A stretch of 64,000 nt of DNA from Escherichia coli (GTDB lineage: Bacteria; Pseudomonadota; Gammaproteobacteria; Enterobacterales; Enterobacteriaceae): assembly GCF_001677475.2 (NCBI RefSeq), contig NZ_CP015229.1. One strand, written 5' to 3'. Each line of letters opens with the position of its first letter. Positions within the stretch are counted from its first letter, which is position 1. This document shows positions 2,413 through 35,338 of the stretch, piece by piece. Position numbers and translations under genes: made by a program. A model generated the notes under the pieces. That model worked only from the letters and a program-made list of their open reading frames with translations, did not search any database and was not told where the DNA came from.

Positions 2413-2925
2413 TCAGCCAAGCCCAAGCGCGGAACGGATACGGTCAGGCACAATGTCCTTGCCGTCCTTCCGGTAGATGTGGTTCAACAGGTCGATTTCC
2501 CACAGCGGGCGATCGTTAACGCTCAGCTTGTAGTAGGTGTTTTTGACAGCGTAAGTGTGTGATGTGGCTTCGCCCTGTTTGGCTTCCCCCATATCAATTT
2601 CCGTCACACGCCCACGCATCTCGATTTCATACAGATCGCTTTCTGCATCGGTGTAGTATTCACCCGCAAAACGCAGCAGCGTGCCGTCAATCGTGCCGCC
2701 ATATTTAAGGAACAGCGCACGAACAGCTCCCCCCATGACAAAACTCGCATCAAGCGCGGAGTCGTCCAGACCGAGATCAATACTTACCGCCCCCATCATG
2801 CCACCACCACGATAGCTGTCGGTTTTGCGCGTCAGTTTGGGCGGCGTGACGGATGTCACTTTACCCACTTCGTTTTCACCATCCACAAACAACGTAAAAA
2901 AGCGAAGATGTTTTGGTACAGCCAT
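2413..2925 (-). CDS. Phage tail tube protein (P2 FII-like)
   Basis: 170-aa ORF; motifs TPPKLTRK, YRGGGMMG, DLGLDD, MRGR, EIDMGE, KQGE resemble P2 FII; its ATG overlaps the FI stop (ATGA). Confidence 0.85.
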   Translation of the reverse strand: MAVPKHLRFFTLFVDGENEVGKVTSVTPPKLTRKTDSYRGGGMMGAVSIDLGLDDSALDASFVMGGAVRALFLKYGGTIDGTLLRFAGEYYTDAESDLYEIEMRGRVTEIDMGEAKQGEATSHTYAVKNTYYKLSVNDRPLWEIDLLNHIYRKDGKDIVPDRIRSALGLG

Positions 2926-4109
2926 CAGGCACCTCCCAGCACCGCAAATGCGGGACCAAAGAATTCATCAGTAAACGTCTGGTAAAGCTCCATGTCTTCC
3001 AGCGGGGGAACAGGCGTATATTTGTAGCGAATACGCACACGTCCCTGACGTAAATTCGTGGTGCCGTTATCCACCACGTCATACCAGCACTCCGCGCCAA
3101 TCAGTTTCCCGGCAGTAACCAGCGAATCCAGTTTTGCCCTGATGGCACTGATAACATCCTTCACGTTCGCAGGCGTCAGTGGACTGTCGATGGTTTCAAA
3201 CTGCGCTTCCGCAATTGAATCAGCCAGCACCTGTGCGGTTCGGGTATACACCTCAAAGATGTAGGCGTTCGTTTCCGGTGTGCGGTTGCCCCAGAAGCGG
3301 AACCCGTTGCGACGAATAATGGTCGTGATTTCTTTGTTGTTGAGGCTGTTGGCATCGCTGTCTTCGGCCTGCAACGACCAGAACACATGCCTCGACATCC
3401 CCAGCACATTTTTAACCGGAACGTTGGACAGTGATTTGTGCCATCCCTGCTCATGGTCAATGTACGCACGAAGGCCGCACGCATAGGCAGGCGCGGGGAA
3501 CGTTTCGTTTTTGCCACTTTTCGGGTTGTAGGCGATGAAGTCTGGCCATAAGAGCATCACCTCACGTTCGTTGAATTTCTGGCGGTAGGTAATTGCCTCG
3601 GCCATCGTGTTACAGCCATGACATGAGGCATACACAAACGCGCGCAGTTTACCCGCAATCACGCACAGGGATTTTGTCACCGCCTCCGTGTCCAGCTCCG
3701 GCGCGGCCAGAATACGCGGACGGTATCCGATGCTTTCATCCTGCTCTGCAACAAGCAGCGCATACATCCCCGTATAGCTGCCGTCAGATTCAGAACCACC
3801 GATAACCAGTTGATCCTGCGTTTTTCCGTCTTCTTCTTTGTGTTCAGCCACGCGAACGACGATCACCTTTGTGCTCACCTGGTCTGCGATGGCCTTAAGC
3901 GCACGATAAAGCGTCCCCGTTGTTCCGCATTTTCCCAGCACGTCATTGACGCGGGTCAGCAGTGTGGGCTTGTTCAGCGGGAACAGCTCCGCGTCCGCAT
4001 CATCTGCCGTTGCCACGATACCGATAACACTGGAATCAACATCATTAATCGCTGTTACCAGGTCGGTACTTTCCGTAACACGGGCACCATGAAAACGAGT
4101 TTCACTCAT
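2925..4109 (-). CDS. Phage contractile tail sheath protein (P2 FI-like)
   Basis: 394-aa ORF; motifs DADAELFPLNKP, AYRQKF, WPDF, DHEQGWHKSLSNV, IRRNGFRFWGNRT, YTRTAQV, YKYTPVPPLE match the P2 FI sheath as I recall it. Confidence 0.9.
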   Translation of the reverse strand: MSETRFHGARVTESTDLVTAINDVDSSVIGIVATADDADAELFPLNKPTLLTRVNDVLGKCGTTGTLYRALKAIADQVSTKVIVVRVAEHKEEDGKTQDQLVIGGSESDGSYTGMYALLVAEQDESIGYRPRILAAPELDTEAVTKSLCVIAGKLRAFVYASCHGCNTMAEAITYRQKFNEREVMLLWPDFIAYNPKSGKNETFPAPAYACGLRAYIDHEQGWHKSLSNVPVKNVLGMSRHVFWSLQAEDSDANSLNNKEITTIIRRNGFRFWGNRTPETNAYIFEVYTRTAQVLADSIAEAQFETIDSPLTPANVKDVISAIRAKLDSLVTAGKLIGAECWYDVVDNGTTNLRQGRVRIRYKYTPVPPLEDMELYQTFTDEFFGPAFAVLGGA

Positions 4110-4266
4110 AGCTTCAGCCCCTTGTATCCGTTAAATGATTCGGCAACAATCATCACCCACCACGCGCGTAATCTCACCCCTGCGCCGTTCTCCCGCCACG
4201 GCGACAACAAAAAGCAGTAATCCCCTCCGCACGCACATGCGACCATGCCGCACAGGGAGGGAACAG

Positions 4267-5376
4267 ATGACCGACACCACCATGCAATTGCTCAGTCAGG
4301 GCACAGACCCCGTGAAAATGCCGGATTTTGATATTCTCGCGGAGGGTAAAACGCTGTCAGGCGTGGCAGAGCGCCTGATGAGCCTGTCACTGACCGACAA
4401 CCGGGGATTTGAGGCGGACCAGCTCACCATCACGCTGGATGATGCGGATGGTCAGTTGCAGCTACCGCCACGGGGCGTGCGCCTGACGGTTCTCATTGGC
4501 TGGAAAGGAGAACCGCTGACAGAAAAAGGCACTTACATTGTTGATGAAATCGCTCACGAAGGACCGCCGGACAGGCTGACTGTTTCAGCCAGAAGCGCAG
4601 ATTTTCGGGATGAATTTAACGTTAAACGTGAGGTGTCCTGGCATGATGTGACCGTTGAGCGTGTGGTATCCGCCATCGCTCATCGGTACGGTCTGAAACC
4701 GCAAATCAGCGAAATGCTGATGGATATCGAAATCGACCACGCCGACCAGACCGAAGAAAGCGACATGTCCTTCCTTACGCGCATGGCGGAAATGCTGGGC
4801 GCAATCACCACGGTAAAAAGCGGCAATCTGTTATTCATCATGCCAGGTGGTGGCGTGAACGCACAGGGCCAGCCGTTGCCATCGTTCGCCATCACACGCA
4901 GCAGCGGCGATCGCCATCAGTTCCGCATTGCTGACCGCGAGGCGTATACGGGGGTGCGCGCCTACTGGCTTGATCTTAACTATGGGAAAAAGAAAAAAGT
5001 CAGCGTGAAACGCCGCAAACCACCCAAACCGAAAAAGGAGAAAAGCAGCAGCCGCGAAGGTGACTATATGGAAGGTGCGGAAGGCAACGTGTTTGTGTTA
5101 CGCAAGACTTATCAGAACGAGCAGGCAGCAAGACGCGCAGCGGCGGCAAAGTGGCAGCAGCTACAACGCGGAGCCGCATCATTTTCCATCACGCTGGCAC
5201 GTGGACGCGCAGAACTCTACCCCGAAATGCATGGCACAGTAACAGGATTTAAAAGCGAGATTGATAATCAGGACTGGATTATTGCAAAAGCCGAGCACAC
5301 CATTGATAACAGCGGCTTTACCACGCAGCTTGAGCTTGAGGCAAAAATCCCGGAATGGATAGCAGAAACAGAGTGA
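4267..5376 (+). CDS. Phage late control / tail protein D (P2 gpD family)
   Basis: ORF track 4135..5376; probable start at ATG 4267 preceded by GGGAGG; motif SLSLTDNRGFEADQLTITLDDADGQL is typical of the Phage_GPD family. Confidence 0.75.
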   Translation: MTDTTMQLLSQGTDPVKMPDFDILAEGKTLSGVAERLMSLSLTDNRGFEADQLTITLDDADGQLQLPPRGVRLTVLIGWKGEPLTEKGTYIVDEIAHEGPPDRLTVSARSADFRDEFNVKREVSWHDVTVERVVSAIAHRYGLKPQISEMLMDIEIDHADQTEESDMSFLTRMAEMLGAITTVKSGNLLFIMPGGGVNAQGQPLPSFAITRSSGDRHQFRIADREAYTGVRAYWLDLNYGKKKKVSVKRRKPPKPKKEKSSSREGDYMEGAEGNVFVLRKTYQNEQAARRAAAAKWQQLQRGAASFSITLARGRAELYPEMHGTVTGFKSEIDNQDWIIAKAEHTIDNSGFTTQLELEAKIPEWIAETE

Positions 5377-5502
5377 ACAACCTCGACGTTTTATTTAATA
5401 TACAAAAGCCTTCTGGACACGGTAAGGCAAGAACAAGGATAGAAGATCCTTTACAGTCAGAGTTACAGGTTATACCTGTAAGCAAAAACAAAGGCATATA
5501 TT

Positions 5503-6261
5503 ATGTTCAGTTTGTTTTCGTTAACTGCCGGAGCAAATGTGCGCTGGCATGATTTACCTGGTCAGGGTATTCCTGTTGTTTTTATTCATGGACTTGGCTG
5601 TTCCTCTTCTTATGAATATCCACGGGTTGTTGCAGATCCTGTATTTGGTGGACAACGAGCGATATTGATAGATCTCCCTGGATATGGATTCAGTGATAAG
5701 CCTAAAGGATTCGATTACAGCATATCCCATCAAGCTAAGGTTGTTATTGAAGTAGTAGAAACCTTAAATCTCTCACAGTTCCATATTTATGGTCACAGTA
5801 TGGGGGGAAGTATTGCGATTGAAGTAGCCAGACAACTACATGAGAGAACAAGAAAGCTTGTGGTTTCTGAGCCTAATTTTCACTCTGGTGGAGGTACCTA
5901 TAGCCGTAAGATAATAGAGAAGCCAGAAGCAGAGTTTATTTCGCATATATATAATGAATTACTGGAGTGTGAAACATCCCCATGGAAAGGTGAACTCCAG
6001 AATGCAGCCCCATGGGCAATATGGCGAGGAGCCAAAAGTCTGGTTGATGGAACCACTCCATCATGGCGAGATATATTCCTTAATCTGTCCTGTTCACGAA
6101 CACTAATTTTTGGCGAACAATCATTGCCAGATAATGATTTCCAGTATATAAAAGAATCAGGAATATCTGTTGCAATAGTGCCAAACGCCGGACACTCCAT
6201 GTCATGGGAAAACCCATCAGCACTGGCCGAAATTTTACACACAGAATTTTATAAAGAGTAA
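5503..6261 (+). CDS. Alpha/beta-fold hydrolase (probable esterase/lipase-type serine hydrolase); AT-rich cargo gene
   Basis: 252-aa ORF; N-terminal VVFIHGLG, nucleophile elbow GHSMGG, C-terminal NAGHSMSW candidate His; codon usage visibly more AT-rich than the flanking phage genes. Confidence 0.6.
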   Translation: MFSLFSLTAGANVRWHDLPGQGIPVVFIHGLGCSSSYEYPRVVADPVFGGQRAILIDLPGYGFSDKPKGFDYSISHQAKVVIEVVETLNLSQFHIYGHSMGGSIAIEVARQLHERTRKLVVSEPNFHSGGGTYSRKIIEKPEAEFISHIYNELLECETSPWKGELQNAAPWAIWRGAKSLVDGTTPSWRDIFLNLSCSRTLIFGEQSLPDNDFQYIKESGISVAIVPNAGHSMSWENPSALAEILHTEFYKE

Positions 6262-6621
6262 AATTGCTCATATATAAATGTTGTTCCATCAGTATCATAT
6301 TATCAAAGGGCAGGAGGTAAATTTATCTTCTGCCATTTCACTCAAATCAGGCGATTTGATAGCACGCATTTTATGAGATGCTTGAAACTTATAAATATAT
6401 AAGAACGTCTTGTTATCAAAATATATAAGCACAGAAAGCAAACACTTTCCCATAATTACTTTGTTAATTTTTTGCCTGATAATAAATGGCATAATAAACA
6501 GTATCAGAGAGTATTTTTATTAATAATTAAACACACATTCCTCAATCTGACATGACTGTTAGTTGGCATATTTACAAATACAATTTAAAATAACGACAGC
6601 AAAACGTTAAGGGAGGTCGCT

Positions 6622-6882
6622 ATGTTCCGTTGTCCGCTTTGTGGCGCATCTGCCCGTATCCGCACCAGTCGTCCAGAAAATGATTCAAACACCGTACGGC
6701 AAAAGTATTACCAATGTAACAACCTGGAATGCGGCGTATGCTTCTCAACACTGGAAGCTTTCCATAAATTCACATCGAAACACGCCTCCGGCGCTCACTC
6801 TTCAGAAAGTATCCCGTGGCATGAACTGCCAGCTTCCCACAGAGGAAACAATCAGATGAGTTTGCCCTTACCTCAAAATTAA
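6622..6882 (+). CDS. Ogr/Delta-family zinc-finger late transcription activator
   Basis: 86-aa ORF MFRCPLCGASARIRTSRP...YYQCNNLECGVCFSTLE; the C-x2-C...C-x4-C pattern and MF-CPLC-RTSR motif match P2 Ogr; RBS AGGGAGG upstream. Confidence 0.75.
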   Translation: MFRCPLCGASARIRTSRPENDSNTVRQKYYQCNNLECGVCFSTLEAFHKFTSKHASGAHSSESIPWHELPASHRGNNQMSLPLPQN

Positions 6883-6942
6883 CAGGCAGAATTGCCGGAG
6901 TAACAAAAAAGCGATAGATTACGCGCGGGTGCCTTTCGGCTG

Positions 6943-7206
6943 ATGGTCGGAGGGAATACCCGAAGGCCAGATGTGGAAAGGCCCCGGAAAACATCTCTGT
7001 TTAACCGAGGCCCTAACCGCATTACCTTGACAAGTGAAAGGTTAGCGCCTCTCCGGAAAAGGAGCAAGTGCTATGTCGCAAAAATCGCTTACAGCCATCA
7101 CGTTCTGCGTGACGGCAATCCTCATCATCTGGATGCTACACGGTTCGCTGTGCGAAATACGGATGAGCTTCTGGGGAGCGGAGTTTGCGGCGTTCTTACA
7201 GTGTAA
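6943..7206 (+). CDS. mok-like overlapping reading frame (translational coupler for hok)
   Basis: 87-aa ORF in a different frame that overlaps almost all of the hok-like ORF, as in hok/mok/sok loci. Confidence 0.35.
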   Translation: MVGGNTRRPDVERPRKTSLFNRGPNRITLTSERLAPLRKRSKCYVAKIAYSHHVLRDGNPHHLDATRFAVRNTDELLGSGVCGVLTV

Positions 7207-7213
7207 GCAGTAA
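7073..7213 (+). CDS. Hok/Gef-family type I toxin (46 aa, single transmembrane helix)
   Basis: Hand translation ATG 7073 to TAA 7211: MSQKSLTAITFCVTAILIIWMLHGSLCEIRMSFWGAEFAAFLQCKQ; hydrophobic N-terminal helix followed by SLCEIR and AAFL motifs; RBS GGAG upstream; too short for the ORF track. Confidence 0.6.
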   Translation: MSQKSLTAITFCVTAILIIWMLHGSLCEIRMSFWGAEFAAFLQCKQ

Positions 7214-7302
7214 GGAAACCGCGACGGGGGAGCAATCCCCCGTCAATCGGTTGCCAGGGTAAGGTCGATAAGGCACCCTATCTCACAGACATGAACAACA
7301 AA

Positions 7303-7335
7303 CCCGCAACGTAAAAACTGCGGGTTTTCTTTTTG
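7303..7335 (+). terminator. Intrinsic terminator downstream of the hok-like locus
   Basis: Inverted repeat cccgca...tgcggg followed by ttttcttttt; an additional perfect hairpin gacggggg-agcaat-cccccgtc lies at 7221..7244. Confidence 0.45.
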
Positions 7336-7482
7336 GTGTCCTCACCGACTTGAAACAGTGATCAGACTATAAGACAAAGCCCACAATGTAGCTGGCTTAC
7401 TCCCCTCCCCCCCCACACTAAATGTGGACACATCGTGGAATGAAGAGATATAAAACATTATAAATCAATTGGTTATTGAAAG

Positions 7483-7508
7483 AAAAAAGGCCGCAGAGCG
7501 GCCTTTTT
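7483..7508 (-). terminator. ihfA intrinsic terminator (hairpin flanked by A/T runs on both sides)
   Basis: aaaaaaggccgcagagcggccttttt immediately downstream of the ihfA stop. Confidence 0.55.
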
Positions 7509-7520
7509 AGTTAGATCAGA

Positions 7521-7820
7521 TTACTCGTCTTTGGGCGAAGCGTTTTCGACCCGGCTTTTTAACTTCTGCCCGGGTCTGAAGGTCACCACGCGCCGTGCTG
7601 TAATGGGAATATCCTCGCCCGTTTTCGGGTTACGTCCCGGGCGTTGATTCTTATCACGCAGATCGAAGTTACCAAAACCAGAGAGTTTCACCTGTTCGCC
7701 GTTTTCCAGAGCGCGACGGATCTCTTCGAAAAACAGTTCAACCAGTTCTTTGGCATCCCGCTTGCTAAGCCCAAGCTTATCAAACAGATATTCTGACATT
7801 TCAGCTTTTGTAAGCGCCAT
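7521..7820 (-). CDS. ihfA: Integration host factor alpha subunit
   Basis: 99-aa [91 protein letters not shown]... Confidence 0.95.
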
Positions 7821-31908: not shown

Positions 31909-33267
31909 TTAAAATTTCAGGGCGTTAGCGATATCTTCTTCGCTCTCTTCTTTATCAATCGCGTTTTGTGCTTTGTTAGCCACCACAACAAAGGGCAGAT
32001 AAATTAACGTTGCGATACCAAGGTTGAAGAGTGCAACCAGCAATGCGGCGACGCTACCGTTGGTGTTAAAGAAGGCTCCCAGACCGGTTGGCATGGTCCA
32101 CGGTGCAATATTGGTCACCGGAGGAATAATACCCATGTAGTACGCTGCCAGGGTGATTGCCGCCAGAATCGGTTGTACCAGTACAAACGGGATAAACATC
32201 ACCGGGTTCATGATAATTGGCAGACCAAACAGAATCGGTTCGTTAATCTGGAAGATGCCGGACGGCAGCGCCAGTTTTGCCACCTGACGATAATCAGCAC
32301 GGCGAGAGGCGATAAAGATAGCCAGGATCAGACCTAAAGTCGCACCACTGCCCCCAAGGAAAATAAAGGAGTCCAGCATCGGCTTGGCCCAGATATGGAA
32401 GGTCTTACCGGCTGCCAGAGCCGCTTCGACGGAACCATATTGCTGATAGGTCGCGATATTTTCCAGCGCCCACGGCGTCATAATGCCGTTGTCCAGTGCG
32501 GTCAGCGCCAGCGCGCCATGAATACCGAAGAACCAGAGCAGTGGAACAAAGATCACATAGGCCCAGCCCACCACGCTACCCAACGATGCCAGTGGGGTTG
32601 AGATGGTATCCATAATGATCTGATGGAAGTTGGTGCCCCAGGTATTCAACGCCCAGGCAATAATCCCCATCACGGAAAGAATAATAAAGCCGGGAATTAA
32701 AGCCGAGAAGGAACGCGATACTGAAGCAGGTACGCTATCGGGCAATTTAATGACCCAATTGCGGCGGACAATAAAGGTAAACATTTCTGCCACCACCAGG
32801 CCAATAATAATCCCGGAGATGATATTCGCCCCACCTAACCAGTTTGCGCCAACCGCATAGGCCTCCCCGACACTATATGGGGTGACGGTCATAAATGCTG
32901 CAACGGATAACAACCCAGCCGCCAGCGCATCGACTTTACGCTCTTCTGCCAGCGCCATGCCAATAAAGAACGGTGCCATTAAAGACATTATCCCTAATGT
33001 TCCGTTATATACGTTGCCGCCAATACCTTTCAGACCATTAAGTGTTTCAATGGTTGAGGCGTCGAGGCGAATACCTAAGGAATAAAAAAACGACCCCTCC
33101 CCAAAGCTTAGAAAAACGTTGTTAATTAATACAAACATGGCCCCCGCAAGGGTTAACGGCATTAAGCGAATAAAGCCATTTTTGATTGCATTAACGTGTG
33201 GCTGCTTTCCTATTTTAACTGCAAAAGGGAGGAGTACCTTTTCAAGCGATGCAATAACATTACTCAT
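31909..33267 (-). CDS. chbC: PTS chitobiose-specific EIIC component
   Basis: 452-aa polytopic ORF. Confidence 0.9.
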
Positions 33268-33351
33268 AGAAAAATACCCTTAAAAACCGCAATTTAAATA
33301 TTGCGGTATTGATTTATGAAATAACTCTTTGACGGGAAAATTTAAAAAAAA

Positions 33352-34309: not shown

Positions 34310-34510
34310 ATTCCGTCCTCTTGTTTATCAGCGTGTTAGATAAGCCTGGAATACATTGGGCGCTTTTTCAAGCCCGTGAACGAAACGGCTCCGCTTTCAG
34401 AGGATTCCTGTATGACGTTTTAACCACCATTCAGCCCGCTGTCGCTTGTCGTTTCAGTAGCAACGGGTTAGCTTTAAGGAAGTTTTGTCTTTTCTGTCTG
34501 GAGGGGTTCA

Positions 34511-35338
34511 ATGACATTGCAACAACAAATAATAAAGGCGCTGGGCGCAAAACCGCAGATTAATGCTGAAGAGGAAATTCGTCGTAGTGTCGATTTTCTG
34601 AAAAGCTACCTGCAAACTTATCCGTTCATTAAATCACTGGTGCTCGGGATCAGCGGCGGTCAGGACTCCACGCTTGCCGGAAAGCTGTGCCAGATGGCGA
34701 TTAATGAGCTGCGCCAGGAAACTGGCAACGAATCGCTGCAATTTATTGCCGTACGCCTGCCCTATGGTGTTCAGGCCGACGAACAAGATTGCCAGGATGC
34801 CATTGCCTTTATTCAACCGGATCGCGTATTAACCGTTAATATCAAGGGCGCGGTATTGGCCAGCGAACAGGCGCTGCGCGAAGCGGGTATTGAATTAAGT
34901 GATTTTGTCCGTGGCAATGAAAAAGCGCGTGAGCGGATGAAAGCACAATATAGCATTGCGGGTATGACCAGCGGTGTCGTGGTGGGCACCGATCATGCAG
35001 CAGAAGCCATTACCGGATTCTTCACTAAATATGGTGACGGCGGTACGGACATTAATCCACTGTATCGTCTCAACAAACGTCAGGGTAAACAGTTACTGGC
35101 AGCATTAGGTTGCCCGGAACACCTTTATAAGAAAGCCCCAACTGCCGATCTGGAAGATGATCGCCCTTCTCTGCCAGATGAAGTGGCACTCGGCGTGACC
35201 TATGACAATATCGACGACTATCTGGAAGGGAAAAACCTACCTGAACAGGTCGCCAGAACAATAGAGAACTGGTATCTGAAAACCGAACATAAACGCCGTC
35301 CGCCAATTACCGTTTTCGATGATTTCTGGAAAAAGTAA
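34511..35338 (+). CDS. nadE: NH3-dependent NAD+ synthetase
   Basis: 275-aa ORF with PP-loop motif GISGGQDST. Confidence 0.9.

Follow-up and report, generated by a model that had tools for sequence, protein, structure and literature searches.

The stretch of DNA analysed here (the window, 64,000 nucleotides of Escherichia coli contig NZ_CP015229.1, assembly GCF_001677475.2) begins inside a prophage and thus covers only its right end. The tail tube and tail sheath genes, at 2413-4109 on the minus strand, are intact. They precede gpD (4267-5376), which matches PF05954 and is full length at 369 aa, and, downstream of it, a gene for an ogr-type late activator at 6622..6882 on the plus strand. The ogr gene, taken from the list of open reading frames and the sequence itself, runs from an ATG start through 86 codons to a stop. 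Its coordinates, its 86-aa length and the C-terminal residues quoted in an earlier sequence-only reading of the locus were all found as that reading gave them.

The ogr reading frame is genuine. The other two frames of the locus carry stops, and comparison with E. coli NCTC9022 gives nine synonymous and no non-synonymous codon differences, six of the synonymous ones lying in the tail that follows the zinc finger. In the tail, P88 differs from the window by six synonymous and three non-synonymous codons. These codon comparisons indicate that the tail is real coding sequence under purifying selection. A ribosome-binding site read from the sequence, AGGGAGG (6610-6616, plus strand), stands 5 nt before the ATG and is conserved in phage P88. 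A consensus scan also gave a sigma-70-like promoter candidate for ogr on the plus strand, TTGGCA-17-TAAAAT at 6563-6591, with 10/12 matches, in a region where the count of such sites is not above that of shuffled sequence. Only the -10 part of this candidate lies in DNA common to P88. The -35 part falls within a cargo insertion, since in the window, as in NCTC9022 and unlike in P88, DNA carrying a hydrolase gene between D and ogr replaces what stands upstream of the ogr -10.

This cargo segment (5380-6600) is AT-rich, with 31-42% GC against 53-56% in the flanking phage genes, and holds a gene for an alpha/beta-fold hydrolase at 5503-6261 on the plus strand; NCTC9022 has the same hydrolase. In PADLOC neither ogr nor the hydrolase matched a defence family, and the hydrolase had no NCBIfam match above cut-off. 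Elsewhere the junction between D and ogr is filled differently: in P88 it measures only 42 nt, and in O26:H11 strain 11368 it carries a His-Xaa-Ser radical-SAM cluster, hxsDBCA. Given these differing contents in P88, NCTC9022 and 11368, the junction looks like a variable cargo hotspot of this prophage lineage, as far as the compared sequences suggest.

Between ogr and the end of the prophage sits a hok/sok locus. A Hok/Gef toxin ORF (7073-7213, plus strand; PF01848, E=4.1e-7) overlaps a mok-like ORF at 6943-7206, and an Rfam match to 'sok' at 6927-7086 reaches 48.4 bits where the gathering score is 59. This toxin-antitoxin locus is part of the phage, as P88 has it too, with annotation. Homology to P88 extends over ogr and hok and ends at about 7335, leaving some 190 bp to the 3' end of ihfA. 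That gene (7521-7820, minus strand) lies beyond the right end of the prophage, with pheT further on. The homology stops just past a hairpin, AAACCCGCAACGTAAAAACTGCGGGTTT, and a subsequent T-run, at about 7300-7340; in the terminator scan the hairpin was called on the minus strand, and the T-run follows it on the plus strand. This interval is probably the right junction of the prophage (attR), downstream of ihfA. Just outside the junction, an Rfam match to the enterobacterial sRNA STnc540 (7427-7579, minus strand; 42.8 bits, gathering score 38) overlaps the 3' end of ihfA and the DNA downstream of it.

Relationship to P88

The closest known counterpart of the locus is that of phage P88, the type of the genus Xuanwuvirus, which was induced as a phage from its host E. 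coli K88 (PMC5285337). The P88 Ogr is 96.5% identical to the window protein over 86/86 residues. P88 also has in common with the window the position of ogr after gpD and before hok/sok at the right end of the prophage, the ribosome-binding site and a candidate late-promoter dyad. Six other named phages, 500465-2, Chuche, PhiR44_2, Shae_phiSM, 520873 and P884B11, likewise encode an Ogr of 86 aa, and together with P88 these proteins are 91-98% identical to that of the window. A P88-type Ogr was recognised by at least 90% identity over the full length together with the neighbourhood D...ogr - hok/sok - att beside ihfA, and the window shows both. NCTC9022 and O26:H11 11368 have the same ogr neighbourhood; gpD is annotated there at 264-266 aa, and the locus is a remnant in some genomes. 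In P88 itself, ogr is intact at 34476-34736 (3001-3261 in the extracted piece), between gp51 (tail protein) and gp52 (hok), yet its annotation is 'none' in both GenBank KP063541 and RefSeq NC_026014.

On this evidence, the ogr gene very probably belongs to a P88-like prophage of the P2 family (genus Xuanwuvirus, family Peduoviridae), inserted downstream of ihfA, and is its late-gene activator.

The zinc-ribbon core

Residues 3-49 of the protein (6628..6768, plus strand) match Pfam Ogr_Delta (PF04606) with 52.4 bits against a cut-off of 26.3 (E=4.9e-14), and the protein also matches PHROG 603, 'transcriptional regulator' (E=4.1e-15). This core contains Cys4, Cys7, Cys32 and Cys37, spaced as CX2CX24CX4C. 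All four are invariant in an alignment (A1) with P2 Ogr, 186 B, PSP3 Pag and P4 Delta. The finger of P2 is spaced CX2CX22CX4C (PMC3931495). A loop of 24 residues is a minority variant in the family: of about 132 representatives, 13 have it and 107 have one of 22 residues.

The P2, 186 and PSP3 activators, to which the window protein is 32-38% identical, resemble it in more than the N-terminal C4 zinc finger: their genes also stand directly downstream of D near the attachment site and have a promoter of their own. The gene in the window has a comparable setting, in a P2-like element with tail gene D upstream and the attachment site nearby. The Pfam match, the C4 finger and this position after D at the end of a prophage all support the description of the product as an Ogr-like activator, which the sequence-only reading had proposed. 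Against the P2-Ogr equivalog model (NCBIfam NF007241 / PRK09678, 72 positions), the protein scores 43.4 bits, below the cut-off of 116, with only residues 1-55 aligned, to model positions 1-53; such a score is expected at about 35% identity to P2 Ogr. By these profile matches the protein is to be classed as a PF04606 family member and, under the NCBI criterion, not as a P2 Ogr equivalog.

In an AlphaFold2 model built on a 35-sequence alignment, residues 1-50 are predicted with a pLDDT of 95-97 and form strands at 10-18, 25-32 and 40-46. A sequence search of the PDB returned no solved Ogr/Delta structure, only weak generic zinc-finger matches. The best solved fold match to the predicted core is the N-terminal zinc ribbon of NrdR (7p37, 9fvr, 9fxk), with an rmsd of 1.2-1.9 A over 46-50 residues, 26-30% identity and a Foldseek E-value of only about 3e-3. 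The ribbon of NrdR binds DNA. NrdR is a repressor with an ATP-cone domain, and therefore has no functional relationship to Ogr.

Length of the protein and its tail

P2 Ogr, 186 B and PSP3 Pag have 72 aa each and P4 Delta has 166 aa, and the comparison of 86 aa with the 72 aa of P2 Ogr made in the sequence-only reading was correct. That reading described the difference as a C-terminal extension with a divergent tail. In alignment A1 the 14 extra residues are instead spread over the protein, with two in the finger loop, nine inserted in the linker (SESIPWHEL) and three at the end (PQN). The last stretch, PASHRGNNQMSLPL, aligns with the C-termini of P2 (RPHPLPSGQQIMWM), 186, PSP3 and Delta. The ends that can be aligned with P2, 186 and PSP3 follow the pattern P..(G)..Q..hydrophobic; the window tail finishes as ...QMSLPLPQN, whereas the P2, 186 and PSP3 type finishes as ...QIMWM or ...PLWL. 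A second alignment (A3) independently showed the two-residue loop insert and, in the long-type members, a common tail block. The tail thus does differ in sequence from that of P2, as had been said, but it is not idiosyncratic, being a conserved block of a whole subfamily.

Within the post-finger tail (residues 51-86; 6772..6879, plus strand), residues 64-83 (6811..6870, plus strand) form a conserved motif, IPWHELPASHRGNNQMSLPL, with the consensus IPxxx(F/L)PxSHxGxxQ(L/M)xL. Relatives with 26-69% identity, from Salmonella, Klebsiella, Enterobacter, Serratia, Symbiopectobacterium and metagenomes, have the motif too, and the relatives that share the tail block in these genera and metagenomes are 79-86 aa long. 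Phages provide named examples. The P2-like phages phiT5282H, 3LV2017 and ST16-OXA48phi5.4 of Klebsiella and Enterobacter have an Ogr of 83 aa, and Serratia KSP20 has one of 82 aa, all with the same tail motif in the form FIPxDAFPASHYGxDQLNL. These homologues differ from the window protein in being 42-49% identical to it and in having the common 22-residue loop, so that only the linker and tail features are shared. P4 Delta belongs to the same Pfam family, and in its second domain the C-terminal end is preceded by a linker insert about as long as that of the window protein (AERLHEKQEL...). In contrast to the window protein, Delta is a satellite-encoded tandem duplication of two fused Ogr-like domains, and its tail, ...SLRLE, is of a separate type.

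The tail as a whole is predicted to be flexible, with a mean pLDDT of 58-71 and no regular secondary structure. Such a picture fits a flexible segment in which a short conserved motif is embedded.

When 1.84 billion representatives were searched with a family profile, 556 members emerged; the best 150 of the 556, on which lengths were counted, have a median of 82 aa. Because the census profile was built mainly from long-type sequences, and because some of the 150 are fragments or gene calls that run too long, the tail following the fourth Cys was measured as well. For the 107 members of this best 150 with an N-terminal finger, its median length is 45 residues, against 49 in the window protein and 37 in P2; the tail is longer than that of P2 in 68% and at least as long as that of the window protein in 35%. 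The motif of the window tail occurs in only 12 of the 150 representatives (50% identity clusters; mostly 79-86 aa), so the bias of the census is limited. Sorted by C-terminal type, the same 150 comprise these 12 with ...FPxSHxGxxQLxL, eight with ...(S/T)xRLE as in P4 Delta and eight with ...W[ML] as in P2 and 186, the rest being unclassified.

The Ogr of Burkholderia P2-like phages has 82 aa (PMC3091744). A full-length gene is present in 1196/5426 complete E. coli genomes, where PGAP names the product 'ogr/Delta-like zinc finger family protein', and 90%-identity clusters of the 86-aa protein hold hundreds of member sequences. Since the same 86-aa protein is found in named phages and in this many genomes, and the family median is 82 aa, the extension is common in the family, which is the outcome that the sequence-only reading had itself named as its refutation. 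The 72 aa of P2 stand at the short end of the family range; 86 aa is the normal size of the P88-type branch, and the gene is ordinary and already annotated.

Candidate late promoters

The consensus dyad of Ogr-type activators is TGT-N12-ACA (PMC3931495). Exact copies of it were absent from the late promoters and intergenic regions of the window and of P88, with fewer matches than in shuffled sequence. The exact form was dropped as a test because the annotated activator sites of P2 are themselves imperfect: TGTTGT-N12-CCATCC (PO/PP), TGTTGT-N12-CAAATG (PV) and GGTTGT-N12-CCAACC (PF). P88 has one TGTTGT-N12-AGAAC in each of its divergent late intergenic regions (terminase/scaffold, sheath/D), at 14214-14236 and 33253-33275. 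A third dyad, equivalent to PV, was not found in P88. In the window, the divergent intergenic region between the tail sheath gene and gpD carries an exact match to the same pattern at 4187..4209 on the minus strand, a candidate activator-binding dyad and probable target of the protein. As the pattern was derived from the P88 sites, only the comparisons with phiT5282H and with P2 are independent of it. The Enterobacter phage phiT5282H, from another genus and with an 83-aa Ogr of the same tail type, has TGTTGT-N12-AGACC in both equivalent regions. Matches with one mismatch elsewhere in the window number only two, which is close to chance.

The distances to the genes are also P2-like. In the window, 89 nt separate the centre of the candidate dyad from the sheath ATG (83 nt in P2), and over the window, P88 and phiT5282H the distance from site centre to start codon is 74-89 nt, compared with 78-96 nt in P2. 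The candidate sites therefore appear to keep the usual recognition geometry of the family, and nothing in them points to a new promoter specificity.

A second element, CCCyTTGTATC..., is also shared between the two phages, at 4123-4148 (plus strand) in the window and at 33189-33214 and 14245-14270 in the late intergenic regions of P88. In the sheath/D region it forms a dyad with 9-nt arms, TTGTATCCG-N10-CGGCAACAA (TGT-N20-ACA). It was considered as an activator site with altered spacing and rejected, being too near the sheath and O start codons for binding at -55; the site of canonical geometry fits better.

Discussion

Studies on the related activators provide a working model for the P88-type protein. 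If it works as its homologues P2 Ogr, 186 B and P4 Delta do, its residues 1-50, the N-terminal C4 zinc ribbon, would bind the imperfect dyad TGTTGT-N12-AGAAC, centred about 55 bp upstream of the late transcription starts. The bound activator would then recruit RNA polymerase by way of the alpha C-terminal domain, and this recruitment would switch on the capsid, tail and lysis operons. For the 86-aa protein, zinc binding, DNA binding and activation are inferred from these better-studied relatives.

The sequence-only reading had assumed that the C-terminus of Ogr contacts alpha. In P2, Ogr binds around -55 and a contact between Ogr and alpha is required, which was placed on the C-terminus of alpha (Wood et al.; PMC3152322). 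That P2 Ogr binds zinc and turns on late transcription by way of the C-terminal domain of alpha is established (PMC3152322). King et al. in 1992 implicated one Ogr residue in this contact, through suppression of rpoA109 (PMC11434276). With the contact assigned to the C-terminus of alpha and to a single residue of Ogr, the earlier premise appears to be a conflation of two C-termini. The suppressor residue, which we take to be Tyr42 of P2 Ogr, aligns with Leu44 of the 86-aa protein, in the third strand of the ribbon core and outside the tail. Moreover, Gebhardt et al. are said to have truncated the carboxy terminus of P2 Ogr in 1993 (reportedly in J Bacteriol 175:7724) with no effect on transactivation. 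Our best guess for the tail is a role in partner- or self-interaction, or as a stability element, rather than in the contact with alpha.

A more specific proposal can be made tentatively, and we hold it to be unlikely in its full form. It says that the tail motif marks a distinct Ogr subfamily, represented here by a member with a 24-residue loop, and that the tail is a functional short linear motif, acting for example in dimerisation or as a second contact with RNA polymerase or with another phage or host protein. Such a motif might tune the activator to late promoters of the TGTTGT-N12-AGAAC kind and partly insulate P88-type phages from cross-activation by P2-type helpers and P4-type satellites.

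It is less probable still that the longer, divergent C-terminus alters the contact with alpha and gives the protein a promoter specificity unlike that of P2 Ogr, as the sequence-only reading had suggested. The tail does differ from that of P2 and is conserved within its own subfamily, the finger loop is two residues longer than in most members, and the right half-site of the candidate dyads, AGAAC or AGACC, departs from the CCATCC, CCAACC and CAAATG of P2. Because AGAAC differs from the CCAxCC of P2, some difference in affinity or site preference from P2 is possible, judging from the sites compared; nothing ties this difference to the tail, and DNA specificity would be expected to reside in the finger. 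The literature places the alpha contact elsewhere, and the candidate dyads keep the TGTTGT left half-site, the 12-nt spacer and their distance from the genes. The right half-site is itself not far from the family norm, given that AGAACA is only one mismatch away from ACAACA, the ideal half-site in P2-like phages of Ralstonia (PMC5694545).

Could the gene be intact and yet serve mainly as a domesticated regulator of the host, left over from a cryptic prophage? There is a precedent in NucC of Serratia, an Ogr homologue of a cryptic prophage that activates nuclease and bacteriocin genes (cited in PMC2716549). Genomes with a rearranged tail region or a shortened gpD also retain the ogr-hok end beside ihfA, with the gene still under purifying selection. 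Against this, the window has a gpD of the full 369 aa, undamaged sheath and tube genes and a candidate late-promoter dyad, complete phages carry the same gene as part of their genomes, and no host target is known. We regard domestication as very unlikely.

Hardly credible at all is the idea that the extension is an artefact, a meaningless read-through produced by loss of a stop codon, by a frameshift or by decay of the gene within a defective prophage. The databases do hold frameshifted or extended variants, one of them of 97 aa with a different end, and several truncated forms of 47-78 aa, and many E. coli copies lie in prophage remnants. But relatives with as little as about 26-40% identity still keep the tail at the protein level, the 86-aa length is identical in seven named phages including the inducible P88, and the end of the tail aligns with the C-termini of P2, 186 and Delta. 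The conservation together with the ratio of synonymous to non-synonymous differences contradicts a read-through or frameshifted tail.

The reading that we favour is that of an ordinary late-gene activator of a P88-like prophage. It carries little weight as a discovery, the protein being a routinely annotated member of a well-known family of phage activators, but it corrects two ideas, that of 72 aa as the 'standard' size of Ogr and that of the C-terminus of Ogr as the surface that contacts alpha. Of modest practical use, like these corrections, is the record that Ogr/Delta tails come in a small number of conserved types (FPxSHxGxxQLxL, ...RLE, ...W[ML]); what such tails do is a question for the whole family rather than for this locus. 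If the tail motif does mediate an interaction, it would make a small addition to what is understood of cross-activation among P2-like phages and their satellites.
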